Assembly (NCBI GenBank): GCA_030531585.1 | Contig: JAUNNC010000003.1 | Location: 1,926-57,914 of the forward strand | Reading direction: 5' to 3' | Source of the DNA: Eubacteriales bacterium | Lineage (GTDB): Bacteria > Bacillota > Clostridia > Oscillospirales > Oscillospiraceae | Length of the DNA stretch: 55,989 nt | Shown: positions 590-17,330 of the stretch, in pieces | Layout of the letters: each line of letters begins with the position of its first letter | Position numbering within the stretch: position 1 is the first letter of the stretch | Program-made: the position numbers and the translations under genes | The notes under the pieces: model-generated | What the model saw: only the letters and a program-made list of their open reading frames with translations | What the model was told of the DNA's origin: nothing | The model's database searches: none

Positions 590-1798
590 TTATCCGCACA
601 CGATGTTCATCAGGATCTCCACGGCCTTGTCCATGTTCTCGGCCGTGATATGCTCATAGGGCCCGTGGAAGGCCGCGCCGCCGGTGCCGAGATTCGGGCA
701 GGGCAGGCCGCGGAAGCTCAGCTGCGAGCCGTCTGTCCCGCCGCGCACCGGGCGGATCACCGGCTTGAGCCCCGCCGCCTCCACGGCGCGCAGGGCGCGG
801 TCCACGACGTCCTCGTGTCCCTTGAGCGCCTCGGCCATGTTGCGGTATTCCACCCAGAGCGAGAGATTCACCGTGCCGTAGCCGTATTTTCCGTTCATGG
901 CGGCCGCGATCCGGCGCATCCTGTCGCAGCGCTCGTCGAAGCGCGCCGCGTCGTGGTCGCGGATGATATATTTGAGCTCGGCGCGGCTGACGTCCCCCGT
1001 GATCCCGGTCACGTGGAAATAGCCCTCGTAGCCCTCGGTCCTGGCGGGGATCTCGTCCGGCGGCAGCATGGCGTTGATCTCCATGGCGACGAGCGAGGCG
1101 TTGATCATCACGTCCTTGGCGGAGCCGGGATGGACGCTCACGCCGCGGATCCTGAAGGTGGCGGCCGCGGCGTTGAAGGTCTCGCAGTTGACCTCCTCGA
1201 GCGCGCCGCCGTCCACGGTATAGGCGCTGGCCGCGCCGAAGCGTTCGAGGTCCAGCAGCGCCGCCCCGTGTCCGATCTCCTCGTCCGGGGCGAAGCAGAC
1301 CGCGACGCCGACGTGGCTCCGATTTTCCTTCATCAGGCGCTCGCAGGCCGTCAGGATCTCCGCGACCCCCGCCTTGTCGTCCGCGCCCAGGAGGGTCGTG
1401 CCGTCGGTGGTGATGAGGGTCTGTCCGAGGCAGGCCATGAGATCCGGGAACTGCGCGGGATTGAGCACCAGTCCGCTGTGGCCGAGCGGGAGTCTTCTGC
1501 CGTCGTAATCCGGGTGCATCCTGGGCCGGACGTTTTTCCCGCTGAAATCCGGGGCCGTATCGATGTGGGCGATCAGTCCGATCACGGGCTCCGACTCGCG
1601 TCCGGGCGTCGCCGGCAGGAAGCCGTAGGCGTAGGCGTGCTCGTCCGCGTAGACGCGTTTGAGTCCCATCGACTCCATCTCCGCCTTCAGAAGGCGTGTC
1701 ATCGTGATCTGCTTGATCGTGCTGGGCGTCTTTCCCGCCTCATGTGCGCTCTGGCTGTCCACCGTCACATAGCGCAGCAGCCGCTCGTATGCTCTCAT
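590..1798 (-). CDS. pepT: Peptidase T (tripeptide aminopeptidase, M20B)
   Basis: 402 codons from ATG at 1798 (MRAYERLLRYV...), with GAGG upstream. M20 hallmarks are present: HIDTAPD, GADDKAG, APDEEIG, GGTDGS. The longer track ORF (to 2233) overlaps ylmH and is rejected. Confidence 0.93.
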   Translation of the reverse strand: MRAYERLLRYVTVDSQSAHEAGKTPSTIKQITMTRLLKAEMESMGLKRVYADEHAYAYGFLPATPGRESEPVIGLIAHIDTAPDFSGKNVRPRMHPDYDGRRLPLGHSGLVLNPAQFPDLMACLGQTLITTDGTTLLGADDKAGVAEILTACERLMKENRSHVGVAVCFAPDEEIGHGAALLDLERFGAASAYTVDGGALEEVNCETFNAAAATFRIRGVSVHPGSAKDVMINASLVAMEINAMLPPDEIPARTEGYEGYFHVTGITGDVSRAELKYIIRDHDAARFDERCDRMRRIAAAMNGKYGYGTVNLSLWVEYRNMAEALKGHEDVVDRALRAVEAAGLKPVIRPVRGGTDGSQLSFRGLPCPNLGTGGAAFHGPYEHITAENMDKAVEILMNIVCG

Positions 1799-1815
1799 GC
1801 TTTCATACCTCACTA

Positions 1816-2559
1816 TTATTTGTACAGCTCCGCCGTGACGAACATCCGTCCCTTGCGGGAGCTGCCGCCGATCTCCAGAATCTTTCCCTTGCCCGCGCCG
1901 CGCAGGGAGAGTACGTCCCCCTCCTTCACCGGCGCGTCGGCCTTGAGACACTCCGCGTAGTTCAAGCTCACGGTCCCGGCCCCGATCTGCCGCGCGCACT
2001 CCGTGCGGGAGAGGTGGAACAGTCCCGCGCACACCGCGTCCAGCCGCGCGCTCATCACCGTGAAGCGGCGCTCCTCGGTCTCGCGTTCCGGCGCGGGCTG
2101 CTCGCCGAGCGCGATCGCCTCGGCTTTGACGGCGAAGCGCCCGACCTTGTCGATGCTCTCGAGGTGGCGCAGGACGCTCGGCTGGCAGAGCACATACGCC
2201 GTATCGCCCTGCACGAGGATGTCCCCGACCCACTCGCGCCCCACGCCCATGCCGAGGATGGCGCCCATGTAGTCGCGGTGTCCCGGCTCGCCGAAGGCGG
2301 CGCGGATGCGCAGGCAGCAGATATGCTCCGCCGGGTCGAGCTCCCCCTCCTCCATCCAGTCGGGCAGGAAGAAGGCCATCGTCCGCTCGGCGTCGGCCCG
2401 GCCGCCTTCAAAGACCATGCGGCTCGCCCGCAGCGCCGGGGCATGCTCGAGGGCACAGCGCTCCGCGGGGCTGAGAAAGCCGCTTTTCGTCAGGCAGCTC
2501 TTCTGCCCGCTGCGCCGCGCCAGATCCTCACCGCGCCGAATCAGTTCCCGCATGTCCAT
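1816..2559 (-). CDS. ylmH: YlmH-type S4-domain RNA-binding protein
   Basis: 247 aa. The C-terminal S4 domain reads RLDAVCAGLFHLSRTECARQIGAGTVSLNYAECLKADAPVKEGDVLSLRGAGKG. Length and architecture fit the YlmH family. The start codon lies 32 nt inside the upstream ORF. Confidence 0.85.
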   Translation of the reverse strand: MDMRELIRRGEDLARRSGQKSCLTKSGFLSPAERCALEHAPALRASRMVFEGGRADAERTMAFFLPDWMEEGELDPAEHICCLRIRAAFGEPGHRDYMGAILGMGVGREWVGDILVQGDTAYVLCQPSVLRHLESIDKVGRFAVKAEAIALGEQPAPERETEERRFTVMSARLDAVCAGLFHLSRTECARQIGAGTVSLNYAECLKADAPVKEGDVLSLRGAGKGKILEIGGSSRKGRMFVTAELYK

Positions 2560-5134
2560 GAAGCTGTTCCTTTACCTTCGCCTTGTGCGCGCCCTGATTG
2601 CTTTTCTCCAGCAGCGCGCCGATCTGCTCCCAGACGTCCCCGACCTCGGCCGCGAACTCCTTCGACGAGGACCGCAGCACGCCCGCGCGCAGGGCCGACA
2701 GGCGGATCAGATTGTCGCTGGTCACGACGCGCACCGCCTCGTTCTTCCCGATCTCGCCCACCAGCCGCTCGATGTAGGCGTCGCCGGTCTCGCCCTCGGC
2801 GGTGTAGGCGACGCGGAGCTTGTGCAGCTCGCTCTTCGAGCCGGGGTTGCCCGCCGTGCGGAAGCCGTCGAAGACCAGCACGACGTCCTTTCCCGTAAAG
2901 CCCGCGTAGCCGGACAGCAGATCGCAGAGCCTTTCCCGCGCGAGGTCGAGGCGCTGGGACGCCAGAGCTTTGAGCTCGTCCCAGGCGAAGATCAGGTTGT
3001 AGCTGTCGATGATCACGGTCTCCCGCCTTGCCGCCGCGGGGAGGGCTGCGGGGGCTTCGGCGCGGTTTTCCCGCCGCTGCGCGTATTCCCGGCGGCGGAT
3101 CGGGCCGAACTCCCGCTCCATGATGGCCTCGAGCTCCCGCTCGTCGATGCTGATGCTGCGCAGGCGCGGCACGTCCGCGGCCTCCGCGCGGGGCTTGAGG
3201 CAGCTTTCGAGGTGCATGTACCGCGGCACCTCGTTCCATTTGATGTTGACGCCCGCCCCGTGCGCGCAGAAGACGGAGTCCGCCGGATCGTCCGTGTCCC
3301 GCTCGGGGTCGTAGCCGATCTCGGCCACGCGTCTGTCCTGATCCGGCACCGGCCGGCAGCCTCCGGCTGACACGCTCAGCCGTCCCCGCCCGTGCGACCG
3401 GGCGAGCAGCTCCTCGGCGTAGGGATTCAGCTTTGCCGCCGGGGCCTCGCCCTCGATGCGCGACATGCCGCCCAGCTCCTCCGGGGCGGAGAAGTCGGCG
3501 TCCATAGCGCGCAGGTCGCTGATGGCCCGGCCGATCTCGGCGGTCGGGACCTCGAGCGCAAAGCGGCGCCACGGCTCGAGCAGGACGCTTTTTGCCTGCA
3601 TCAGGCCCTGCCGCACCGCGCGGTAGGTGGCCTGCCGGAAGTCCCCGCCCTCGGTGTGCTTGAGGTGGGCCTTCCCGGCGGCGAGGGTGATGTGCATATC
3701 CGTTATGGGCGCGCCGGTCAGCACGCCCCGGTGCTCCTTTTCGGCCAGATGGGTGAGGATGAGCCGCTGCCAGTTGCGGTCGAGCTCGTCCTCCGGGCAG
3801 ATGCTGTCGAAGCTCAGGCCGCTGCCGCGCGGCATGGGCTCGAGGATCAGATGCACCTCGGCGTAGTGGCGCAGGGGCTCGAAGTGGCCCACGCCCTCCA
3901 CGGTGTCCGCGATGGTCTCTCGGTAGAGGATCTGCGGCTCGCCGAGCGCGATCTCCGTGTCGAAGCGTTCCTTTACGAGGCTTCGGAAGACCTCCCCCTG
4001 GATTCTTCCCATGAGCCGGACGCGGATCTCCCCCGCCGCCGCGTTCCATTCGACGTGCAGCTGCGGGTCCTCCTGATCGAGCTCCCGGAGCTTCGGCAGC
4101 AGGAGCATGGGGTCGCAGCCTTTCGGCAGGAGCAGCCGGCAGCTCATCACCGGTTCGCTCTCCGCCTCCTCCGCGTCCTTCTCCGCGCCGAGCCCCTGGC
4201 CCGCCCGGGTCTCCGTCAGGCCCAGCGCGGCGCAGACCGTCCCGGGTCCCGCCGTCTCCGCGCTCTCGTATTTGCTGCCGCTGTAGATGCGGAGCTGACT
4301 GATCTTCTCCTCGCGCATCCCGCCGTCCGCCCCGCGGTAGGCGATCGGCGCGCGCACGCGCAGCTCGCCGCCCGTGATCTTCATCCAGGTCAGGCGCTTG
4401 CCCGCCTCGTCGCGGGAGATCTTGAACACGCGCGCCGCGAATGCGTCGCCGTACTCCCCCTGCGGGGCGAGGCGTCCGAGCGCTTCGAGGAAGCTCTCCA
4501 CGCCCTCGAGCCGCAGTCCCGAGCCGAAGAAGCAGGGAAACAGCTCCCGCCCGCGGATCAGCTGTGCGAGGAACGCATCGTCGAACGTCCCCTCCGCGAG
4601 GAAGCGCTCCATCGCCTCCTCGCTTCCCAGGGCGATCTCCTCGAGGGCGCCGTCGTCCGACAGGTCGACGCAGCGCTCGGACAGGCGGGCGCGCAGCTCG
4701 TCCAGAACGGCGCCGCGCCCCGGTCCGGGCAGGTCCATTTTCGTCACGAACACGAAGGTCGGCACCCCGGCGTTCTCGAGCAGCTTCCAGAGCGTCTCGG
4801 TGTGGGCCTGCACGCCGTCGGTGCCGCTGATGACCAGCACCGCGCAGTCGAGCACCCGCAGCGTCCGCTCCGCCTCGGCGGAGAAGTCCACATGCCCCGG
4901 CGTATCCAGCAGCGTCACGCTCCGTCCGTTCAGCGTCGTCTGCGCCTGCTTGGCGAAGATCGTGATGCCGCGGGCCCGCTCGAGCCCGTGGGTGTCGAGG
5001 TAGCTGTCCCGGTGGTCGACGCGCCCCGGCTTTTTCAGTTTTCCCGAAAGGACCAGCATGGCCTCGCACAGGGTCGTCTTGCCCGCGTCCACATGGGCGA
5101 GGATGCCGAATACCGTATTGTCCGCTTTTCTCAT
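2528..5134 (-). CDS. EF-G/Tet(M)-like translational GTPase fused to a C-terminal YacP/Rae1-type NYN (PIN-like) nuclease domain
   Basis: 869 codons from ATG at 5134 (MRKADNTVFGILAHVDAGKTT). G1 is AHVDAGKT, G3 is DTPGH, G4 is TKMD, followed by EF-G-like domains II-V (ILYRETI..., LEPWRRFALEVP...). The last ~165 aa (RETVIIDSYNLIFAW...VVLVFDG...VVTSDNLI) look like a YacP NYN domain. The track ORF start at 5212 would add 26 aa before the P-loop and has no RBS. Confidence 0.9.
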   Translation of the reverse strand: MRKADNTVFGILAHVDAGKTTLCEAMLVLSGKLKKPGRVDHRDSYLDTHGLERARGITIFAKQAQTTLNGRSVTLLDTPGHVDFSAEAERTLRVLDCAVLVISGTDGVQAHTETLWKLLENAGVPTFVFVTKMDLPGPGRGAVLDELRARLSERCVDLSDDGALEEIALGSEEAMERFLAEGTFDDAFLAQLIRGRELFPCFFGSGLRLEGVESFLEALGRLAPQGEYGDAFAARVFKISRDEAGKRLTWMKITGGELRVRAPIAYRGADGGMREEKISQLRIYSGSKYESAETAGPGTVCAALGLTETRAGQGLGAEKDAEEAESEPVMSCRLLLPKGCDPMLLLPKLRELDQEDPQLHVEWNAAAGEIRVRLMGRIQGEVFRSLVKERFDTEIALGEPQILYRETIADTVEGVGHFEPLRHYAEVHLILEPMPRGSGLSFDSICPEDELDRNWQRLILTHLAEKEHRGVLTGAPITDMHITLAAGKAHLKHTEGGDFRQATYRAVRQGLMQAKSVLLEPWRRFALEVPTAEIGRAISDLRAMDADFSAPEELGGMSRIEGEAPAAKLNPYAEELLARSHGRGRLSVSAGGCRPVPDQDRRVAEIGYDPERDTDDPADSVFCAHGAGVNIKWNEVPRYMHLESCLKPRAEAADVPRLRSISIDERELEAIMEREFGPIRRREYAQRRENRAEAPAALPAAARRETVIIDSYNLIFAWDELKALASQRLDLARERLCDLLSGYAGFTGKDVVLVFDGFRTAGNPGSKSELHKLRVAYTAEGETGDAYIERLVGEIGKNEAVRVVTSDNLIRLSALRAGVLRSSSKEFAAEVGDVWEQIGALLEKSNQGAHKAKVKEQLHGHAGTDSAR

Positions 5135-5141
5135 GGCTGTT

Positions 5142-5170
5142 ATTGTATCAGTTTTTTGGGGAAGAATCAA
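5142..5170 (-). promoter_or_regulatory. Sigma-A-type promoter TTGATT-17-TGaTACAAT, ending 7 nt before the GTPase-NYN ATG (leaderless candidate)
   Basis: Minus strand reads TTGATT (5170-5165), a 17-nt spacer ending in TGA, TACAAT (5147-5142), AACAGCC, then ATG (5134-5132). There is no Shine-Dalgarno sequence in between. Confidence 0.5.
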
Positions 5171-5243
5171 TTCCGTTGTTATCGGTGTTATGTAACCTTT
5201 CCGTCTTTCCATAAAAAAATTTCAGCTTTTCTGAAACTTTTCC

Positions 5244-5272
5244 TGTATTTTCTGTAAAGACTATGATATAAT
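5244..5272 (+). promoter_or_regulatory. Possible extended -10 promoter for the two-component operon
   Basis: TGaTATAAT at 5264-5272. The -35 (TGTATT at 5244-5249, 17-nt spacing) is weak. Lies about 60 nt upstream of the response-regulator ATG. Confidence 0.35.
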
Positions 5273-5332
5273 CAGTTGATAGTTTGCAATTATCATTGAA
5301 AACACAAGATTTCTATAAAGGGGTTTGCCATT

Positions 5333-6022
5333 ATGAAGAAGATTCTCGTTCTGGAGGATGAGTCCAATATCCGCAGTTTCGTGGTCATCAACCTGCGCCG
5401 CAGCGGGTTTGAGCCCATTGAGGCCGCCAGCGGTGAGGAAGCGCTCGAGAAGCTGAAGGTCAATCCGGATATCTGTCTGGCTCTTCTGGACGTGATGCTG
5501 CCGGACATCGACGGCTTCGAGGTCTGCCGCCGCATCCGCGCCTCCGGCTCGAAAATGGGCATCATCATGCTCACCGCCAAGAATCAGGAGATCGACAAGG
5601 TCACAGGCCTGATGACCGGCGCGGACGACTACGTCACCAAGCCCTTCTCCCCGGCGGAGCTGACCGCGCGCGTCGACGCGCTGATCCGCCGTCTGGGCGT
5701 GGACGAGGACGAGAAGAGCGCCAACGAGATCGTCAGCGGTCCCTTCCTGCTCAACACCCGCAACCGCACGCTGGAGAAGGACGGCCAGCGCCTGAAGCTG
5801 ACACAGATCGAGTATCTGCTCATCAAGCTCTTCATGGAGAACCCCGGCAAGGCCATGAGCCGCGAGGATATCCTTGCCGCCGTCTGGGGCGGCGACTTCA
5901 CGGGCGAGCTCAAGACCGTCGACGTCAACATCCGCCGTCTGCGCATCAAGATCGAGAGCGACCCGACCGAGCCCGAGTACCTGACGACCGTCTGGGGCTA
6001 CGGCTATAAATGGGGTTACTAA
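5333..6022 (+). CDS. OmpR/PhoB-family response regulator
   Basis: 229 aa. The receiver domain reads KILVLEDE...LLDVMLPDIDGF...IIMLTAK. The C-terminal winged-helix domain reads LTQIEYLLIKLF...VDVNIRRLRIKIE...TVWGYGYKW. Confidence 0.93.
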   Translation: MKKILVLEDESNIRSFVVINLRRSGFEPIEAASGEEALEKLKVNPDICLALLDVMLPDIDGFEVCRRIRASGSKMGIIMLTAKNQEIDKVTGLMTGADDYVTKPFSPAELTARVDALIRRLGVDEDEKSANEIVSGPFLLNTRNRTLEKDGQRLKLTQIEYLLIKLFMENPGKAMSREDILAAVWGGDFTGELKTVDVNIRRLRIKIESDPTEPEYLTTVWGYGYKWGY

Positions 6023-6037
6023 TAGGAAGTATTCTGT

Positions 6038-7033
6038 ATGTTTGGCAATTTGAAAACCCAGCTCCTGCTCTCGGCCATCGCGGCGCTGGCTCTGCTGCTG
6101 ATGGGCATCTGGGCCGCAAGCCACGCCCTGATGGGCTGGGCCACGGCGATCCTCATCGTCATCTGCGCCTACGTCATCATGGTGAACATCTGGTTCTGGG
6201 CCGCGGTCTCGCAGCCGCTGTCCCGGCTGACCGAGCATGCCCGCCGCATCTCCGAGGGCAGCTACGGCACGAAGATCGAGGGCTTCGCCGACGATGAGAT
6301 CGGGGAGCTGGCCGACCAGATGAACAACATGTCCGAGAAGGCCGCCATCGCGGAGAAGACGCGCACGGAGTTCATCTCCCAGGTCTCGCACGAGCTGCGC
6401 ACGCCGCTGACGGCCATCACCGGCTGGGCCGAGACCATCGCCTTCGACCCCGACGTCAAGGGCGACTCGCTGCGCGGCATCAACATCATCTCCAAGGAGG
6501 CCGAGCGCCTGACCAACATGGTCACGGAGCTGCTGGAGTTCACGCGCATTCAGGACGGACGCTTCAACCTGCGCATCGAGCTGATCGACATCGCGGCCGA
6601 GCTGGAGGACGCGCTGTTCACCTACGGGGAGCTGATGAAGCAGGCGGGCATGACCGTCAAGTACACGCCGCCCGTGACGGAGATCCCGCTGATCCCCGGC
6701 GACAGCGAGCGGCTCAAGCAGGTCTTTCTGAACCTGCTGGACAACGCCATGAAGCACGGCGGTGACGGCGGGCGGATCGACGTCAGCCTCCGGCAGGAGG
6801 ACGGGCATGTGCGCGTGAACGTGCGCGACTACGGCCACGGCATCCCCGAGGCCGAGCTTCCGCACGTCAAGGAGAAGTTTTACAAGGGCAGCTCGAAGAA
6901 CCGCGGCACGGGCATCGGCCTCGCGGTCTGCGACGAGATCGTCACCCGCCACGGCGGGACGCTCACGGTCTCCAACGCGCCGGAGGGCGGCTGTCTGGTC
7001 TCGGTGGCGCTGCCGATGGCGAAAAACGCTTAA
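6038..7033 (+). CDS. Sensor histidine kinase (two N-terminal TM helices with almost no external loop, HAMP, HisKA, HATPase)
   Basis: 331 aa. H-box is SHELRTPL, N-box is LLDNAMKH, G-boxes are DYGHGI and GTGIGLA. Starts 15 nt after the regulator gene. Confidence 0.92.
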   Translation: MFGNLKTQLLLSAIAALALLLMGIWAASHALMGWATAILIVICAYVIMVNIWFWAAVSQPLSRLTEHARRISEGSYGTKIEGFADDEIGELADQMNNMSEKAAIAEKTRTEFISQVSHELRTPLTAITGWAETIAFDPDVKGDSLRGINIISKEAERLTNMVTELLEFTRIQDGRFNLRIELIDIAAELEDALFTYGELMKQAGMTVKYTPPVTEIPLIPGDSERLKQVFLNLLDNAMKHGGDGGRIDVSLRQEDGHVRVNVRDYGHGIPEAELPHVKEKFYKGSSKNRGTGIGLAVCDEIVTRHGGTLTVSNAPEGGCLVSVALPMAKNA

Positions 7034-7058
7034 TCTGTATATTTAGGAGTATCCCGTA

Positions 7059-8009
7059 TTGAAAGAAAACGCAAGCTGCGAGTTCCGCACCTCCATCGGC
7101 GGTCAGGCCCTGATCGAGGGCATCCTGATGCGCGGCCCGAAGAAGCAGGCCATCGTCTGCCGCACGGCCGACGGCCTCGTGGAGAAGACCGAGGAGCTCA
7201 AATTCATCAAAGACCGTTATCCCATCCTGGGCTGGCCGCTGATCCGCGGCTGCGCCATCTTTATCTCCTCGATGGTCAAGGGCATGCAGGCCCTGACCTG
7301 GTCGGCCAATCTCGTCCCGCTCGAGGAGCAGGGCGAGCCCGACAAGGTCGACAAGTGGATCGAGGAGCATTTTCCCGAGGACACGGCGCAGAAGCTCATC
7401 ATCGGCGTGGCTGTCGTGGCGGGCGTGGCGCTGAGTCTGTTCCTGTTCATCTTCCTGCCCGCGTTTTTTGTCGGGCTCATCAAGCCGCTGACCGGCAGCT
7501 TCGTGGTCCGCAACCTGGCCGAGGGTCTGGTCCGCATTGCGATCCTGCTCGGCTACATGAAGCTCGTCACCTTCTCCGGCGACGTCAAGCGCCTGTTCAG
7601 CTACCACGGGGCCGAGCATAAGACCATCTTCTGCTATGAGCACGGCAAGGAGCTGACCGTGGAAAACGTGCGGCCCGAGTCCCGCTTTCACCCGCGCTGC
7701 GGCACGAGCTTCCTGCTGGTGGTCGTCGCGGTGAGCATTCTGGTCAACTCGGTGGTGCGGCTTCAAAACAGCTTTGCCCGCATGGGCGCCCACCTGCTGC
7801 TGCTGCCGCTGGTCGTGGGCATCAGCTACGAGATCAACCGCTGGTGCGGCCTGCACGACAACGCCCTGTCCGCGGCGCTGAGCGCGCCGGGCAAGTGGCT
7901 GCAGCGCATCACCACCAACGAGCCCGACGACGGCATGATCGAGTGCGCGATCCGCGCGCTGCAGCTCGTGATTCCGGAGGAAGCGGGCAGCGACGCCTGG
8001 GGGAATTGA
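7059..8009 (+). CDS. DUF1385 family membrane protein (YqhQ-like, commonly paired with prmC)
   Basis: 316 aa with a TTG start and AGGAG 9 nt upstream. The N-terminus SIGGQALIEGILMRGP and the HGAEHKTI motif are typical of DUF1385. Sits directly upstream of prmC. Confidence 0.85.
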   Translation: MKENASCEFRTSIGGQALIEGILMRGPKKQAIVCRTADGLVEKTEELKFIKDRYPILGWPLIRGCAIFISSMVKGMQALTWSANLVPLEEQGEPDKVDKWIEEHFPEDTAQKLIIGVAVVAGVALSLFLFIFLPAFFVGLIKPLTGSFVVRNLAEGLVRIAILLGYMKLVTFSGDVKRLFSYHGAEHKTIFCYEHGKELTVENVRPESRFHPRCGTSFLLVVVAVSILVNSVVRLQNSFARMGAHLLLLPLVVGISYEINRWCGLHDNALSAALSAPGKWLQRITTNEPDDGMIECAIRALQLVIPEEAGSDAWGN

Positions 8010-8012
8010 GAC

Positions 8013-8867
8013 ATGAAGACCTACAACGACATCTATCTCTCCGCGCGCAACACCCTGCGCCGCCACGGCGTGGAGGCCTACGCGCTGGAAGCGCGCATCC
8101 TGGTCGCCTGCGCCGCCGGGAAGAGCGTGCAGGAGCTTTTGAAGGATCTGAACCTCTACACCACGCCGCAGGTGGAGGGCACCGTCACCGACGCCATTGC
8201 GCGCAGGCTCCAGGGCGAGCCGGTGGCCTACATCACCGGGACCTGGGAATTCTACGGTCTGCCCATGAAGGTGACGAGCGACGTGCTGATCCCCCGCCCC
8301 GATACCGAGACCCTGGTCGACGCGGTCAAGGAGCTGCTTGTGGGCCGCAAGATGGACGCGCGCATCCTGGACCTCTGCTGCGGCAGCGGCTGCATCACCT
8401 GCGCGCTGGGGCACGAGCTGCCCGCCACCAAGCTGGTGGCCGTCGACCTGAGCGCCAGCGCTCTTGAGGTCTGCCGCGAGAACGTGGGGCTCAACCGCCT
8501 TAACTCCCGCGTGATCTGCGTGCAGGCGGACGCCACGGCCTCGCCTCCGCTCGGGATCGGCACCTTCGACGTGATCGTCTCCAATCCTCCGTACATCCGA
8601 AGCGACGAGATCCCGCAGCTTGACCGCTCGGTGCGCGACTACGAGCCCGTCTGGGCTCTTGACGGCGGGCCGGACGGCCTGCGCTTCTACAAGGCCATCA
8701 TCAAGTACTGGAAATCCCTGCTCCGGCCGGACGGCGCGCTGGTCTTCGAGGTCGGCGAGGGGCAGGCGGACGACGTGTGCGAAATGCTGATGGCGGCGGG
8801 CTTCAATTCCACGGCGGTGCGCCGGGACGCCCGCGGCGTCGAGCGCGTCGTGATCGGACGGATCTGA
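8013..8867 (+). CDS. prmC: Peptide chain release factor N5-glutamine methyltransferase
   Basis: 284 aa. The SAM motif is ILDLCCGSGCI and the catalytic motif is VSNPPYI. Confidence 0.92.
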   Translation: MKTYNDIYLSARNTLRRHGVEAYALEARILVACAAGKSVQELLKDLNLYTTPQVEGTVTDAIARRLQGEPVAYITGTWEFYGLPMKVTSDVLIPRPDTETLVDAVKELLVGRKMDARILDLCCGSGCITCALGHELPATKLVAVDLSASALEVCRENVGLNRLNSRVICVQADATASPPLGIGTFDVIVSNPPYIRSDEIPQLDRSVRDYEPVWALDGGPDGLRFYKAIIKYWKSLLRPDGALVFEVGEGQADDVCEMLMAAGFNSTAVRRDARGVERVVIGRI

Positions 8868-14136: not shown

Positions 14137-14163
14137 GAATGAGCTCTGTCTTGTTTCTTGGTT

Positions 14164-15519
14164 TTACGATTGTCCCCGCGGGTAGGTCGAATTGCGGTCG
14201 AGCGGGATGTATTTGTAATTCCCGTTGTCTGGCCGTTCTCCCTTGCCGAGCGCCCAGTCGATCATGCCCGCGCGCATGGCGTCGGTGATGATGCTGTAGT
14301 GTCCGCCCTCGGCGACCTCCACGATGGTGACGTCATCCCCGTGGGCGACCATCAGCTCGATGGCGCGCTTGTTCATGCCGATCCCGCCGAACTCCAGCAG
14401 CAGGAACGAGGTCCCGGCCTCCGCCGCCGCGTCGCACTGCTCGGGGGTCATGATGCGGCTGGGCTCCTCCCAGTGGTTGCCGGCGTCAAAGGTCAGCACC
14501 CGGCGCGCGGCCAGGCCGTGATTGCGGTAGAGCTCCGCCGCGCCCTGACAGGCGGTGTAGGCGCCCATGCTGGCTCCGCAGAGCACGAGATCGTGCAGGA
14601 AGACGTTATTTTCGATCCCCGCCTGCTCCAGCGTCCGGTAGCACTCCTCGATCTTTTCCGCAGGGTCGGAGTAGCCGTTGGCATAGCACAGGAGCATGAT
14701 CGCATTCGGCAGCTCCGGGGAGTGGGCATATTCCGACAGATAGCTGTTGGCCAGCGCCTCATCGTAGCCGCCCGGCCAGAAGATCATGCAGCGCGTCTGA
14801 GGTCCCGCGTCCTTCGGCACATACACCAGACCCAGGCGGACCCAGTAGAGCATGCCGCCGCCGACATCCTTGCCGGAGTATTCGGAGGCCCGGATCGGCT
14901 CGTCCGTGCCCGCGGCCATCGCCGCCACGCGCGCGAGGCAGCGGTCCCGGAGAAGCTTGCCGTCCCGGTAGTCGCCGAGCTCGTTCCACAGCGCGATGGC
15001 CTCGTCCATGCGGCAGGCATAGGTGGCCGCGAGGGCCTTTTCATACTGCGCCTCGCGCGCCTCCACGATCGCCTCCGCCGCGCCCGGATAATCCCCCAGC
15101 TCTTCCAGCAGGGCGATCCCCTCGCGGTACCGACCGCCCGCGAGCATCTCCCTGGCGCGCCGGAGCTCGCATTCGACCGCGCGCTGCGCCGCGTCCTCGA
15201 AGTCGCCCAGCTTAAGGAAGGCGTCCCGTGCGTCCAGGTACTCGCCCGCGTCCAGCAGCTTCTCCGCCTCCCGCAGACGCTCCTGCTTCTCCAGCAGCTC
15301 GAGCTGCGCCTCGCAGTCCGCCGCCTCGTCCGTCAGACCGAGCGCCTCATAGGCGGCCTTCGCCGCGGCATAGTCGCCGACGGCGGCCAGCTCCCGCGCC
15401 GCGTTGACCGCCTCCCGGTACGTCTGTTCCCGACGGCGCGTCATGCTGATCCGGAAGCAGGCGATCGTCAGCAGGGCCAGCAGCAGGGCAAGCAGGCCCC
15501 GCTTTACGCTTTTTGACAC
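14164..15519 (-). CDS. Membrane-anchored protein: N-terminal TM helix, four GDY/GDF-type helical repeats, C-terminal alpha/beta-hydrolase-like domain
   Basis: GTG start at 15519 with AAAGGAGG upstream (VSKSVKRGLLALLLALLTIACF). Repeats are VGDYAAAKAAY, LGDFEDAAQRA, LGDYPGAAEAI and LGDYRDGKLLR. The C-terminal part has a G-x-S-x-G elbow (LCGASMGAY) and a late GGHYS. The longer track ORF (to 15684) overlaps the upstream gene and is rejected. Confidence 0.7.
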   Translation of the reverse strand: MSKSVKRGLLALLLALLTIACFRISMTRRREQTYREAVNAARELAAVGDYAAAKAAYEALGLTDEAADCEAQLELLEKQERLREAEKLLDAGEYLDARDAFLKLGDFEDAAQRAVECELRRAREMLAGGRYREGIALLEELGDYPGAAEAIVEAREAQYEKALAATYACRMDEAIALWNELGDYRDGKLLRDRCLARVAAMAAGTDEPIRASEYSGKDVGGGMLYWVRLGLVYVPKDAGPQTRCMIFWPGGYDEALANSYLSEYAHSPELPNAIMLLCYANGYSDPAEKIEECYRTLEQAGIENNVFLHDLVLCGASMGAYTACQGAAELYRNHGLAARRVLTFDAGNHWEEPSRIMTPEQCDAAAEAGTSFLLLEFGGIGMNKRAIELMVAHGDDVTIVEVAEGGHYSIITDAMRAGMIDWALGKGERPDNGNYKYIPLDRNSTYPRGQS

Positions 15520-17330
15520 GTCGCGCCTCCTTTGTCCAGCCACCTCCCCGGCTGCAGCGCCATGCTGATCCAGACCGGGTACATGGCAAACAGCGGCTCC
15601 ACATAGCGGAAGTTGCTGACCGGTCCGGCCATATAGGTCGCCCACAGGAAGAAGGGCAGCGACAGCGGCAGCAGGAGGCTCCACCGTTTTTTCCAGCCCA
15701 GCACCGCCGCGCAGAACAGCAGCAGCCAGACGGGCGTGGCGATGGAGAAGAGCGTATTGAGAAGGGGCCGGTTTTCAAACGCGGAGAAGTCCGCGACACT
15801 GTCATAGAAGCGGAGCAGGCGCGGCAGCCTGCTGTCCCGCTCGACGGAGAACGCGTCCGTCCCGGTGTTCTCAACCTCGATGTACGCGCGCCCGGACCAG
15901 TAGTCCACCGTCGCGGCGTCCGGATACCAGTAGGGCAGGTTGAGATCCAGGAAGGCGCAGAGATAACTGCTCGCATGCTTCGGGAAGAGCGACAGCCAGA
16001 GTCGGAAAAAGGCCCCGCGGTCGCGGTAGTAGGCCGCCTGGTCGAAGTTGTATTTAATGTAATCGGCAAAGCGGGGGTTGTAGATCTCCTCGATGCGGTC
16101 TGTCGGGAAATAGCGGTCGATGGCCTCGAGCTCCTCCCCTTCGAGCGTGTCGCGGTCGTTGAGAACGGTGTTCGCCATCTGCGAGAGCGGGACGCACAGG
16201 GCCTCGGTCTCCCAGGCAGGCTGGATGCCGAGCGCGTCGTATACCGGGCCGTTGACCACCCAGAAGAGTCCGAGCGTCAGCGCGAGCAGCAGCGCCGTCC
16301 TGCCGAGCTGTCGGCGCAGCACGATCAGGAAAAAGGGTGCGGCCAGCAGCAGCATGTACAGGGCGTTGTTGCGCAGCAGCAGCGTCAGAGCGCCGCTGAG
16401 AACGAAGCCCGCCGCTGCGCGTTTGTCGTGCAGAAAGCCCGCGGGGTCGCGCACCAGCAGGATGCTCTTCACAAACAGCAGCAGCAGGAGAGCGCCGAAG
16501 AAAACGTCCTTGGTCATGGTCAGGGAGAAGATCGCCAGCGCCGGGTTCAGGGCGAACCAGGCGAGGGCGCCCAGCACCAGGAAGCGGTTGACGCGCAGGC
16601 GCCGCATCGTATCCGTCACCCGGGCGAAAATTGCGGAAACCGCCAGCATCTGTACGACGGCGTACAGTGTCAGCGGGTTCACGCCGCTCGCTTTGCCGGC
16701 GCGGATGCAGAGCGCCCAGAACAGCGTATGCAGCGGCGGATGGAGGCGCGAGCAGTCCGTGATCGGTCCCAGCGCCTGCGGTGTCTGGACCCACGCGTCG
16801 TAGCTGTGCACGCCCGGCCAGTAGGCCAGCAGGGCGGGCAGCCACGCGAGGAAGATCACGCCCCAGAAGATCAGGAAGCGGGACTTCCCCTCCGGTCCCG
16901 CCGGGAAGCGCTCGTCCTCAAGCAGCGGCAGCAGGACGGCGCAGACCGCCGCGATCAGCGAGGCGAAGCCGACGAAGACCACAACGCTCGACAGCAGGTT
17001 CTCCGCCGGAACAAAGGCGGAGGCGAGCCGGTCGGTCAGATACAGGCTCCGGCCGAGCACCAGCGCGCCCGCCGTCACCACGCCGTACAGGGCGGAGAAG
17101 CGGCGCGAGCGCCGGTCCGCCTCCCATGCGCGGTGAAACAGCAGCCAGCCCGCGGCGAAGAGAAAGACATTCAGGATGGAGGAGGCGTGGAACGGCCTGT
17201 CGTTGAAGGCGGAAAACGCCGTATTCCGGAAGAAATAGCGGTTGAACGCGCCGACCAGGCAAAGGGCCTGCAGCGCGCAGGCGAGCGCCCGCAGCGCTGC
17301 CGCCCGTCTGTTCTGTCTTTCCTCATGCAT
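15504..17330 (-). CDS. Large polytopic membrane protein (about 12 or more hydrophobic helices; GT-C/DUF6020-like, tentative)
   Basis: 608 aa, almost entirely hydrophobic segments separated by short basic loops. Its stop overlaps the downstream GTG start by 16 nt. The family name is a guess from size and topology only. Confidence 0.7.
   Translation of the reverse strand: MHEERQNRRAAALRALACALQALCLVGAFNRYFFRNTAFSAFNDRPFHASSILNVFLFAAGWLLFHRAWEADRRSRRFSALYGVVTAGALVLGRSLYLTDRLASAFVPAENLLSSVVVFVGFASLIAAVCAVLLPLLEDERFPAGPEGKSRFLIFWGVIFLAWLPALLAYWPGVHSYDAWVQTPQALGPITDCSRLHPPLHTLFWALCIRAGKASGVNPLTLYAVVQMLAVSAIFARVTDTMRRLRVNRFLVLGALAWFALNPALAIFSLTMTKDVFFGALLLLLFVKSILLVRDPAGFLHDKRAAAGFVLSGALTLLLRNNALYMLLLAAPFFLIVLRRQLGRTALLLALTLGLFWVVNGPVYDALGIQPAWETEALCVPLSQMANTVLNDRDTLEGEELEAIDRYFPTDRIEEIYNPRFADYIKYNFDQAAYYRDRGAFFRLWLSLFPKHASSYLCAFLDLNLPYWYPDAATVDYWSGRAYIEVENTGTDAFSVERDSRLPRLLRFYDSVADFSAFENRPLLNTLFSIATPVWLLLFCAAVLGWKKRWSLLLPLSLPFFLWATYMAGPVSNFRYVEPLFAMYPVWISMALQPGRWLDKGGATCQKA

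Follow-up and report, generated by a model that had tools for sequence, protein, structure and literature searches.

The analyzed window (55,989 nt) encodes on its reverse strand a single protein that joins an EF-G-type GTPase to a Rae1/YacP-type NYN endonuclease; all features described here lie on this strand. The coding sequence (2531..5134) specifies 868 aa and is followed by a TGA stop codon at 2528-2530. Read from its first ATG, the complete ORF (2528..5212) would give 894 aa; read from position 5134, it gives 868 aa. The latter start is favored because homologues are 862-868 aa long, and the other ATG, in frame and further upstream at 5212, probably goes unused. As the initial annotation had stated, the whole fusion occupies one uninterrupted frame. 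Long ORFs are frequent in this DNA of 64-69% GC (e.g., an 842-aa ORF in another frame of the same strand), and it is homology that decides whether the fusion ORF is real.

A sigma-70-type promoter (TTGATT-17 nt-TG.TACAAT, 5142..5170) is the only promoter-like site in the region 1700-5400, where 0.3 would be expected, and its hexamers and 6-7 nt spacing to the ATG are kept in loci L001-L004. The promoter sits between the ATGs at 5212 and 5134. The fusion mRNA is probably leaderless, since 7 nt separate the end of the promoter from the start codon at 5134 and a Shine-Dalgarno sequence is missing.

Downstream, a gene for a 247-aa YlmH homologue (1816..2559; Pfam YlmH_RBD, E = 2e-8, and a weak S4 match) overlaps with its start the final 32 nt of the fusion gene, and a Shine-Dalgarno-like sequence (AAGGAA) lies inside the 3' end of the fusion. 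The homologue matches the 50S-bound B. subtilis YlmH (8s1p_V) over aa 23-245 (phmmer, E = 4.7e-24). This overlapping adjacency is kept only in L001-L005 and L009, i.e., 6 of 76 loci, and the YlmH gene is thus a clade-specific operon partner, not a family-wide feature.

Domain organization of the fusion protein

The N-terminal part (aa 8-599) is a complete five-domain EF-G-type GTPase, as first proposed from the sequence. The G domain (aa 8-224, 4463..5113; Pfam GTP_EFTU, E = 1.5e-46) has a reduced G' insert, about 70 aa shorter than that of EF-G, and carries the motifs G1 AHVDAGKT (aa 13-20, 5075-5098), G3 DTPGH with the catalytic His81 (aa 77-81, 4892-4906), and G4 TKMD (aa 131-134, 4733-4744), each at the position already assigned to it. 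Motifs G1, G2, G3 (including His81), and G4 are all invariant among 43 sequences of 37-53% overall identity (D16, G18, K19, T20, T58, D77-H81, K132, and D134). Domains II (aa 232-314) and III (aa 327-398) together span 3941..4441. Domain II matches Pfam EF-G_D2 with 32.8 bits, and domain III scores 23.2 bits against EFG_III in the window protein, just below the cut-off of 27, whereas many homologues have EFG_III among their precomputed Pfam matches and score above the cut-off. Domain IV (aa 400-515, 3590..3937; Pfam EFG_IV, E = 1.2e-17) and domain V (aa 517-599, 3338..3586; Pfam EFG_C, E = 2.3e-11) complete the body. In a Foldseek comparison, the fold of this N-terminal part aligns with that of ribosome-bound EF-G (E = 7e-54; about 690 columns).

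Domain IV has family-specific tip loops, which were read by aligning the protein with EF-G of T. thermophilus and with Tet(M), Tet(O), and TetB(P). Loop I (GHFEPLRHYAEV, 3854-3889) lacks the GGRGQ tip of EF-G and is 4 residues shorter, and loop II/III reads AGKAHLKHTEGGDFRQ (3632-3679). Among the 43 family sequences mentioned above, G414, G416, H417, E419-L421, H423, E426, H493, D498, and R505 are invariant. The fusion shares with EF-G the five-domain architecture and fold, the intact G motifs with the catalytic histidine, and a domain-IV tip histidine that aligns with that of EF-G; it differs in the G' insert, in loop I, and in its C-terminal additions, namely a module, a tether, and a nuclease. 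Assignment of the body to EF-G or to the tetracycline ribosomal protection proteins was considered and rejected, as it fails both curated cut-offs (244 bits against 659 for EF-G, TIGR00484; 365 bits against 775 for tet_protect).

The GTPase is followed by a family-specific module (aa ~592-645, 3200..3361) that is near-invariant in 57 species-representative fusions and likewise in the 43-sequence alignment, with the consensus GY.PC.N....VI...GYDPE.D.ENP.DSVFC.HGAG..V.W.EV...MH over about 45 aa. It is predicted to fold as a helix followed by a beta-hairpin and a short helix, with a pLDDT of 87-94 in the full-length model and 52-71 when modelled without the GTPase body. The module has no Pfam match and no fold match in the PDB, and alignment shows it to be absent from Tet(M), Tet(O), and EF-G. 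The subsequent tether (aa 646-704, 3023..3199) has two disordered spacers, the first acidic and the second basic, with a conserved helix motif between them (D.EL..I.ER.(Y/F)GP, aa 664-684, 3083-3145); the full-length model gives aa 648-663 and 679-700 a pLDDT below 50 and places a helix at 665-676. Among the 57 species-representative fusions, the motif is conserved and the spacers differ in length. The tether is long in every case: the distance from SVFC in the module core to DGYN at the first nuclease aspartate has a median of 106 aa (range 83-215). What had been described as a short acidic/basic linker is therefore a connection of about 105 residues, at least 59 of them disordered, with a conserved folded module and a conserved helix motif.

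The C-terminal part is a Rae1/YacP-type NYN endonuclease domain (aa 705-822) with a C-terminal helix (aa 824-860), together spanning 2555..3022. The original domain assignment is borne out by a NYN_YacP match over aa 707-859 (Pfam, E = 2.6e-37), by similarity to B. subtilis YacP/Rae1 (5mq8/5mq9; phmmer, E = 1e-16), and by superposition of the predicted fold on 5mq9_A (Foldseek, E = 1.3e-10; TM 0.78; rmsd 1.7 Å; 144 columns). The motifs IIDSYN, VFDG, and VTSDN were found in this part. The initial annotation expected three acidic metal-site residues; their conservation was confirmed, but they number four: D710 (3005-3007), D756 (2867-2869), D785 (2780-2782), and D807 (2714-2716). All four are invariant in the 57 species-representative fusions and common to B. 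subtilis and Acetoanaerobium Rae1. The invariance of these aspartates and of the GTPase motifs points to purifying selection on both activities.

The C-terminal 160 aa of the fusion thus correspond to a complete Rae1 (PF05991; 5MQ8, 5MQ9) of the same fold, including the Y-N of GYN and the long C-terminal helix. Rae1 is a free protein of 170 aa that binds the ribosome transiently, whereas the domain in the fusion is covalently tethered to a factor-site GTPase and is encoded outside the cysS-mrnC-rlmB-rae1-sigH operon. No ribosome-bound structure of Rae1 exists (PMC13622287). In the subclade of the window, the NYN domain has drifted: GYN is replaced by SYN (S711), Ile takes the place of Glu in the widely conserved "SD.LEQ", and the Rae1-like C-terminal tail motif found in Lachnospiraceae members is missing. 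Judging from these changes, nuclease activity may be altered in this subclade.

Distribution and genomic context

The same architecture was found in more than 120 clusters at 90% identity and in more than 150 at 50% identity, where each of the 150 best representatives is a full-length fusion; several hundred species-representative genomes have it. Species genomes contain at least 589 relatives, of which the best 80, each from a different species-representative genome, are all fusions and represent at least five families. Carriers include Oscillospiraceae, Ruminococcaceae, Lachnospiraceae, Monoglobus, and Fusibacter. The recurrence of a single polypeptide across the clusters and the 80 best loci removes the concern that the fusion is an assembly or frameshift artefact of adjacent genes; it is a real and widely conserved gene of gut Clostridia. 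Among these 80 loci, identity drops with taxonomic distance, from 51-65% in the named Oscillospiraceae and Ruminococcaceae loci that head the list (L003-L018) to 45-49% in Lachnospiraceae, and the fusion appears to be vertically inherited in Clostridia. The genes are located in the core chromosome, adjoining recA, recX, cysS, or pheT. Since the loci compared share no family-wide conserved gene neighborhood and show no linkage to ssrA or smpB, genomic context supports little outside the clade of the window.

The existence of the fusion is not a new observation, as it was mentioned in passing by Atkinson 2015 (PMC4342817) and Matelska 2017 (PMC5499597). A search of the accessible literature found no functional study of it, in agreement with the earlier statement that no such fusion is known to have been functionally characterized.

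Proposed function and alternative explanations

With moderate confidence, we interpret the fusion as a GTP-controlled, Rae1-type cutter of mRNA on stalled or collided ribosomes that docks through its built-in EF-G-like GTPase. The general idea of the initial annotation, a GTPase bringing an mRNA nuclease to stalled ribosomes, thereby stands as the best reading, but the A-site geometry attached to it does not. [quoted passage not shown]

For the fusion family, we infer which ribosome state is targeted, what is cut, and what GTP does as follows. The GTP-form body would dock on a blocked ribosome at its factor-binding site (the sarcin-ricin loop, the base of the L7/L12 stalk, and the 30S shoulder). 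EF-G naturally acts on the rotated/hybrid ribosome. The trailing ribosome of native B. subtilis disomes is rotated/hybrid, and the inter-ribosome mRNA has uS7/uS11 of the stalled ribosome on one side and uS3 of the collided ribosome on the other (PMC10897456). The trailing ribosome of a collision, being both in the state that EF-G recognizes and unable to translocate, would thus be the most economical target. The shortened domain-IV loop I suggests that the body senses or occupies the rotated state rather than driving translocation, and the fusion is unlikely to be a translocase. Binding to the rotated PRE-state ribosome is a guess, because the domain-IV tip differs from that of EF-G, and a Tet-, BipA-, or RF3-like preference for another state would be equally compatible. 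From its length, the tether could bring the NYN domain to the mRNA on the entry side (uS3) of the trailing ribosome, and the cut would fall in the inter-ribosome segment, where stand-alone Rae1 cuts. Cleavage would leave a non-stop end for tmRNA rescue of the upstream ribosomes and expose the message to decay, and GTP hydrolysis would release the factor.

Such a mode of action would likely be analogous to that of SmrB (E. coli), Cue2 (yeast), and MutS2 (B. subtilis), which recognize stalled or collided ribosomes and then cut or, for MutS2, split. MutS2 also carries an NTPase and a nuclease-type domain on one chain, although its NTPase is an ABC ATPase and not a GTPase. The folds are unrelated (SMR versus NYN), and these proteins recognize the 30S-30S interface, whereas the fusion would use the translation-factor binding site.

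An alternative, which seems rather unlikely, is that the fusion docks on ribosomes or their precursors and cuts rRNA or tRNA in maturation, quality control, or turnover during starvation or sporulation. YacP was first predicted to act in rRNA/tRNA maturation from its operon with mrnC and rlmB (PMC5499597, PMC4342817), and with a GTPase at the factor site, the nuclease would be able to reach h44, H69, and the sarcin-ricin loop. However, the sole characterized family member, B. subtilis Rae1, performs translation-dependent cleavage of mRNA, the fusion shows no linkage to rRNA-processing genes, and a flexible tether of this length argues for a target beyond the factor-binding pocket.

It is quite improbable that the body helps to dissociate stalled 70S ribosomes, in the manner of HflX or of EF-G acting with RRF, and that, with the mRNA cut by the NYN domain, obstructed 50S subunits result for RqcH and YlmH to process. 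This explanation draws on the operon with a full-length YlmH homologue in the clade of the window and on the activity of YlmH on 50S-peptidyl-tRNA complexes (PMC11317155). In Pusillibacter (Oscillospiraceae), moreover, an NFACT/RqcH gene comes after mrnC, whose classic operon partner is rae1, which shows that links between RNA processing and quality control have been reshuffled in this group. Yet the YlmH adjacency is restricted to the few loci noted above, the sequence bears no sign of splitting activity, and Rae1 and the MutS2/RQC route are independent in B. subtilis (PMC13622287). Under the favored interpretation of mRNA cleavage on collided ribosomes, co-translation with YlmH would link the fusion, in this clade, to the clearing of obstructed 50S subunits.

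A tetracycline ribosomal protection protein with an accessory RNase, as suggested by Atkinson 2015 and implied by NCBI names of several members ("TetM/TetW/TetO/TetS family"), is very unlikely. The top NCBIfam match is tet_protect, earlier classifications place these proteins in the same trGTPase subfamily neighborhood (PMC4342817), and the fusion aligns collinearly with Tet(M), Tet(O), and TetB(P), sharing their short G' insert and shortened loop I. Nevertheless, tet_protect falls below its cut-off, as do all curated Tet models, those for Tet(M), Tet(O), and Tet(Q) scoring far lower still, and identity to real Tet proteins is 28-30%. The tetracycline-displacing loop "YYSPVSTPADFR" is replaced by "AH.KHTEGGDFR", the loop-III YSPVS is absent, and the Tet C-terminal extension is replaced by another module. 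For domains IV-V, EF-G gives the better match (E = 2.5e-18), with 8.8e-12 for Tet(O) and 1e-9 for Tet(M), and the gene is chromosomal with a vertical-looking distribution, not on mobile elements. The advice against annotating it as a tetracycline-resistance gene is thus upheld. Finally, a toxin or abortive-infection effector that stops translation by cutting ribosome-bound RNA is extremely unlikely: nuclease-NTPase fusions are frequent in defense systems and an action of Rae1 against phage mRNA has been speculated upon (PMC13622287), but PADLOC gave no match, no partner or antitoxin gene is conserved, and the context is housekeeping with a broad, taxonomy-tracking distribution.

Which genomes carry the fusion and which carry stand-alone Rae1 gives a partial indication of how the two are related. 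For Bacilli and Peptostreptococcales, the searches for mrnC and for an NYN gene point to the same organisms, with equal record counts in both. The records of Pusillibacter and Subdoligranulum, two mrnC-carrying Oscillospiraceae species, contain no NYN match, and in Monoglobus pectinilyticus the fusion is the only NYN_YacP locus in ~2.1 Mb (about three-quarters of the genome). This part of the Monoglobus genome and the mrnC-bearing Oscillospiraceae records hint at a replacement, and the fusion is probably the local form of Rae1 in the lineages that carry it, rather than an addition to it.

Gene structure, family breadth, and authenticity of the fusion

The fusion is encoded by a single minus-strand ORF running from window position 5212 to 2528 (ORF list), with candidate ATG codons at 5212 and 5134. 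Based on the lengths of homologues in the protein cluster search (862–868 aa) and a near-consensus promoter located between the two ATGs, the start is placed at 5134, which gives a protein of 868 aa plus a stop codon, in agreement with the initial annotation. The promoter (window 5135–5170, minus strand) consists of TTGATT, a 17-nt spacer, and the extended -10 element TG.TACAAT. Since it ends 6–7 nt before the start codon and no Shine-Dalgarno sequence was found upstream of that codon, the mRNA of the fusion gene is suggested to be leaderless. The promoter-to-ATG arrangement is kept upstream of the fusion gene in the close clade (loci L001–L004). An Rfam scan of the window gave no match, and thus no riboswitch or leader RNA. 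The GC content of the gene is 69% compared with 64% for the window, which is otherwise ordinary core chromosome (recA, recX, a miaB-like gene, pgsA, cysS, and pheT).

The EF-G-type Pfam domains GTP_EFTU (E 1.5e-46), EF-G_D2, EFG_III, EFG_IV (1.2e-17), and EFG_C (2.3e-11) cover aa 8–599, with domains G, II, IV, and V exceeding the Pfam cut-off and EFG_III slightly under it. The C-terminal part matches NYN_YacP (PF05991) at aa 707–859 (128.8 bits versus a cut-off of 24.6, E 2.6e-37), as well as the crystal-structure sequence of Bacillus subtilis YacP/Rae1 (5mq8/5mq9; E 1e-16). The profiles thus return the two halves proposed from the sequence alone, and all motifs cited in that proposal were found where it had placed them.

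In a search of 5.8 billion proteins, over 120 clusters (90% identity level) came out as 66–100% identical to the query, all of approximately 865 aa and with an identical Pfam set. In the 50%-identity library, all 150 of the 150 best representatives are approximately 830–1000 aa long and match end to end at 39–55% identity. When genomes were scanned with each species represented once, at least 589 relatives were detected, and the best 80 of these were fusions without exception (80/80). Their hosts include Oscillospiraceae, Ruminococcaceae, Acutalibacteraceae, Faecalibacterium, Intestinimonas, Flavonifractor, Lachnospiraceae (Blautia, Dorea, Herbinix, Robinsoniella, and Acetatifactor), Eubacteriaceae, and Fusibacter; the fusion is also present in Monoglobus and Agathobacter rectalis. 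Identity to the fusion in the window drops as taxonomic distance grows. This recurring single-chain architecture excludes a frameshift or an assembly join of two genes, the artefact against which the initial annotation had warned.

A small number of family members are without the NYN domain. The protein representatives P0270, P0255, and P0241 stop just past the conserved module that follows the GTPase body, P0187 runs on in apparently frame-shifted sequence without NYN, and P0263, which looks chimeric, has an aminotransferase domain (Aminotran_4) in its place. These five are probably gene-call or assembly artefacts, and the idea that the same GTPase body carries other, modular C-terminal effectors was rejected on this ground, although NYN-less members may be genuine split or truncated forms. 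Acetoanaerobium, which served solely as a Rae1 reference, has no fusion and carries the classic stand-alone rae1 instead.

The architecture has been mentioned twice in the literature, and its novelty was therefore overstated in the initial annotation. One mention describes a TetM-NYN_YacP fusion “in some Clostridia” with an “unclear” role (Matelska 2017, PMC5499597); no functional work on the fusion was found in the literature searched. A phylogenetic survey of Rae1 used hmmsearch and no size filter (PMC13622287), so that fusions were silently counted as Rae1 and the architecture was overlooked. New here are the size of the family, the strict conservation of the GTPase and nuclease active sites, and a body without the Tet determinants, in addition to a structured tether with a novel module, an operon with YlmH specific to one clade, and a docking model in line with the 2025–2026 Rae1 data.

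The GTPase body, the nuclease domain, and the tether between them

In an alignment of 43 members (37–53% identity to the query), the invariant GTPase columns include D16, G18, K19, and T20 of G1, the switch-I Thr58, the G3 motif DTPGH with His81, and K132 and D134 of G4. Those of the nuclease include D710, Y712, N713, D756, T778, D785, and D807. Judging from this conservation, the GTPase and nuclease active sites are both under selection. The full-length AlphaFold model has a mean pLDDT of 87.5 and a pTM of 0.70, and the body in this model aligns with EF-G structures, both ribosome-bound and free, over approximately 690 columns (best E 7e-54).

The body failed the cut-offs for EF-G proper (TIGR00484, 244 versus 659.4 bits; NF009381, 291 versus 583) and for the tetracycline ribosomal protection proteins (tet_protect NF012153, 365 versus 775 bits). 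It also failed the individual Tet(M), Tet(O), Tet(W), and Tet(Q) models, with scores of 184–230 against cut-offs of 1100–1425 (among them 230 versus 1100, 184 versus 1420, and 214 versus 1425). In tblastn, the fusion shares 30% identity with TetB(P), 29% with Tet(O), 28% with Tet(M), and 26% with EF-G. For domains IV–V alone, Thermus thermophilus EF-G is the closer match (E 2.5e-18), ahead of Tet(O) (8.8e-12) and Tet(M) (1e-9).

In ribosome structures of Tet(M) and Tet(O), tetracycline is displaced by loop III (Y-S-P-V-S); the C-terminal extension of Tet proteins is also functional. Ten family members were aligned with genes annotated as tet(M), tet(O), tetB(P), and fusA. In direct alignment, loop III of Tet(M), Tet(O), and TetB(P) reads “GLYYSPVSTPADFR” versus “GKAHLKHTEGGDFR”, and the Tet motif does not occur in the fusion. 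At the position of “GLYYSPVSTPADFR” the family has “GKAH.KHTEGGDFR” and EF-G has “GSYHDVDSNENAFR”, with the tip histidine of EF-G aligned to a histidine of the family; the Tet signature is absent because the Tet loop is replaced. Loop I of domain IV (“GHFE----PLRHYAEV”) is four residues shorter than in EF-G (“GKFIKQSGGRGQYGH”) and two shorter than the Tet loop. Moreover, the fusion lacks the C-terminal extension of Tet proteins and differs at its C-terminus. The failed curated cut-offs, together with the missing loop and extension, uphold the earlier view that this is not a tetracycline-resistance gene. By these sequence comparisons, the body is a distinct EF-G/Tet-like subfamily, and it looks made to occupy the factor site rather than to translocate or to remove tetracycline.

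The naming of the family in RefSeq/GenBank is inconsistent. Some members are called “NYN domain-containing protein” or “translation factor GTPase family protein”, and others, including the A. rectalis copy (locus L089, NZ_CP143948.1, 3625–6426) and the representatives P0047, P0049, and P0077, bear the name [quoted passage not shown]. For members of this family, the latter name is probably wrong, and it may inflate resistome counts in gut metagenomes.

The nuclease domain retains the features of Rae1. In a second alignment of 57 C-terminal regions from species-representative genomes with the Rae1 proteins of B. subtilis and Acetoanaerobium, D710, D756, D785, and D807 are invariant in all 57 fusions and common to both Rae1 proteins. 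The YacP active site has been described as “at least four Asp” plus a GYN motif (Matelska 2017, PMC5499597); the motif after the first Asp is GYN in most members and SYN (S711) in the window copy. In an AlphaFold model of aa 591–868, the NYN domain has a pLDDT above 90 and superposes on Rae1 (5mq9_A) with a TM score of 0.78 and an rmsd of 1.7 Å over 144 columns (E 1.3e-10); the next-best fold matches are generic PIN domains (E >1e-3). The NYN domain of the window subclade has drifted from the family consensus (window 2708–3013, minus strand; aa 708–809), with “VFDGFRTAG” for “VFDAYKVKG” and “SDNLIRLS” for “SD.LEQ.I”, in which the Glu is gone, while the four aspartates are retained. The Rae1-like C-terminal tail motif ..L..MEE(I/V)R.G.., common to Lachnospiraceae members and stand-alone Rae1, is absent in this subclade.

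The two halves had been described as joined by a short linker, which is instead made up of four parts: a conserved module, a spacer, a helix motif, and a second spacer. The module (approximately 45 aa within aa ~592–645, after domain V) reads GY.PC.N...VI...GYDPE.D.ENP.DSVFC.HGAG..V.W.EV...MH and has no relatives in Pfam or in a PDB fold search. Its pLDDT is 87–94 in the whole-protein model versus 52–71 in isolation, and this confident fold only in the whole-protein context suggests that the module packs against the GTPase body. Beyond the module come a disordered spacer whose length varies, the conserved helix motif D.EL..I.ER.(Y/F)GP (aa 664–684), and a variable, basic spacer that leads into the NYN domain five residues ahead of the first catalytic Asp. 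Counted from the module core, this Asp lies at a median distance of 106 residues and never closer than 83. Conserved elements within an always-long tether point to regulated delivery of the nuclease rather than a passive join.

Gene neighborhood and the distribution of free Rae1

Downstream of the fusion lies a gene of 247 aa (window 1816–2559, minus strand), whose start overlaps the last 32 nt of the fusion gene and whose AAGGAA ribosome-binding site is inside the 3′ end of the latter. It matches YlmH_RBD (34.8 bits versus a cut-off of 23) and, under the cut-off, S4 (17.7 bits versus 22.8). In a phmmer comparison with B. subtilis YlmH (8s1p_V), aa 23–245 correspond to chain residues 32–255 (E 4.7e-24), and the gene has the three-domain YlmH architecture of an N-terminal domain, an RRM-like central domain, and an S4 domain. 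By homology, it is a full-length counterpart of the 50S-bound B. subtilis YlmH (8s1p), an S4-domain factor with a supporting role in alanine tailing by RqcH (PMC11317155). The overlap is present at six of 76 loci (L001–L005 and L009) and missing from the other 70 with enough flank, and YlmH was accordingly rejected as a family-wide operon partner and retained as a clade-specific one. Unbiased clustering of the three nearest genes on either side at 82 fusion loci (80 species-representative genomes and two metagenome contigs) yielded no recurrent neighbor. The link to ribosome quality control is thus real for this clade and not a property of the family.

The region divergent from the fusion (window 5333–8867, plus strand) starts with a pair encoding an OmpR-type response regulator and a histidine kinase and continues with a DUF1385 protein, the release-factor glutamine methyltransferase PrmC, recA, and recX, an order kept in L001 and L002 at approximately 68% identity. 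Further along the window, a 452-aa ORF without a Pfam match (14158–15516, plus strand) adjoins a 608-aa DUF6020 protein (15504–17330, minus strand); the 452-aa ORF may not be a gene, since this GC-rich DNA has many long ORFs overlapping on opposite strands. A role of the fusion as a defense system was discarded as there was no PADLOC match.

The case for the fusion taking the place of free Rae1 in the lineages that carry it is partial. In a tblastn search with the NYN domain, the fusion was the sole match within approximately 2.1 Mb of the Monoglobus pectinilyticus assembly, which is deposited contig by contig as “plasmids”; the searched collection contains this portion, about three-quarters of the assembly going by locus tags. 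In Bacilli and Peptostreptococcales, mrnC and a NYN gene occur in the same organisms with equal record counts in both searches, and two Oscillospiraceae records carrying mrnC gave no NYN match. The canonical rlmB-rae1-sigH slot was rejected as a test of the loss of stand-alone Rae1: in Agathobacter and Monoglobus, that operon no longer precedes the rpmG-secE-nusG-rplK cluster, and at one locus (L012), a single case, mrnC is close to the fusion. In Pusillibacter faecalis (locus L093, NZ_AP023421.1, 5959–8108), mrnC is directly followed by an overlapping NFACT/RqcH-type gene, whereas in Bacilli it is followed by rlmB-rae1; this order is an unexpected link between rRNA processing and ribosome quality control in an Oscillospiraceae genome.

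Putative docking at collided ribosomes

The normal substrate of EF-G is the rotated PRE-state ribosome. In the favored model, the EF-G-like body in its GTP form would dock on the trailing ribosome of a collision, which would be rotated and blocked in translocation; docking there is favored because the rotated state is the usual substrate of EF-G and is blocked in the collision. The tether would then allow the nuclease access to mRNA at the entry side of the trailing ribosome, the known Rae1 cut position. The cut would supply tmRNA with a non-stop end, and the factor would be released upon GTP hydrolysis. The two ribosomes of native B. subtilis disomes differ in state, non-rotated for the stalled one and rotated/hybrid for the collided one, and the mRNA that connects them is located between uS7/uS11 of the former and uS3 of the latter (PMC10897456). 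Translation-dependent mRNA cleavage upstream of stalled ribosomes is known for B. subtilis Rae1 only (PMC12407103, PMC13622287), which makes tmRNA substrates on collided ribosomes (PMC13622287, 2026 preprint).

Alternatively, the body may dock on the empty A site of the lead ribosome, like Tet, RF3, or BipA, in which case the nuclease must reach round the 30S head to the exit side. The initial annotation had proposed a GTP-gated device that places an mRNA nuclease on possibly stalled ribosomes at the A site; its outline stands, with the A site to be replaced by the collision interface given the 2025–2026 Rae1 data. The reading in which the EF-G-like body acts as a dedicated collision sensor, detecting the rotated trailing ribosome that is blocked in translocation through the ordinary factor-binding site, with GTP as licence or timer, and swings the tethered Rae1 onto the inter-ribosome mRNA is put forward tentatively, as a possibility that we consider somewhat unlikely.

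No structure of ribosome-bound Rae1 exists because its binding is transient (PMC13622287). The fusion indicates a concrete docking site for Rae1, and a Rae1 naturally joined to a factor-site GTPase offers a means of trapping the transient complex with a non-hydrolysable GTP analogue or a His81 mutant. This large family has hosts that dominate the human and animal gut (among them Faecalibacterium, Agathobacter, Blautia, Dorea, Flavonifractor, and Intestinimonas), where the fusion is probably a major unstudied route of ribosome rescue or mRNA surveillance. If the collision-sensor reading is true, the fusion would reveal where and how free Rae1 engages ribosomes and would be a bacterial single-chain counterpart of the inspection of stalled ribosomes by trGTPase-type factors in eukaryotes and archaea. 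Collision rescue in most gut Clostridia (Oscillospirales, Lachnospirales, and Monoglobales) would then begin with the fusion and not with free Rae1.
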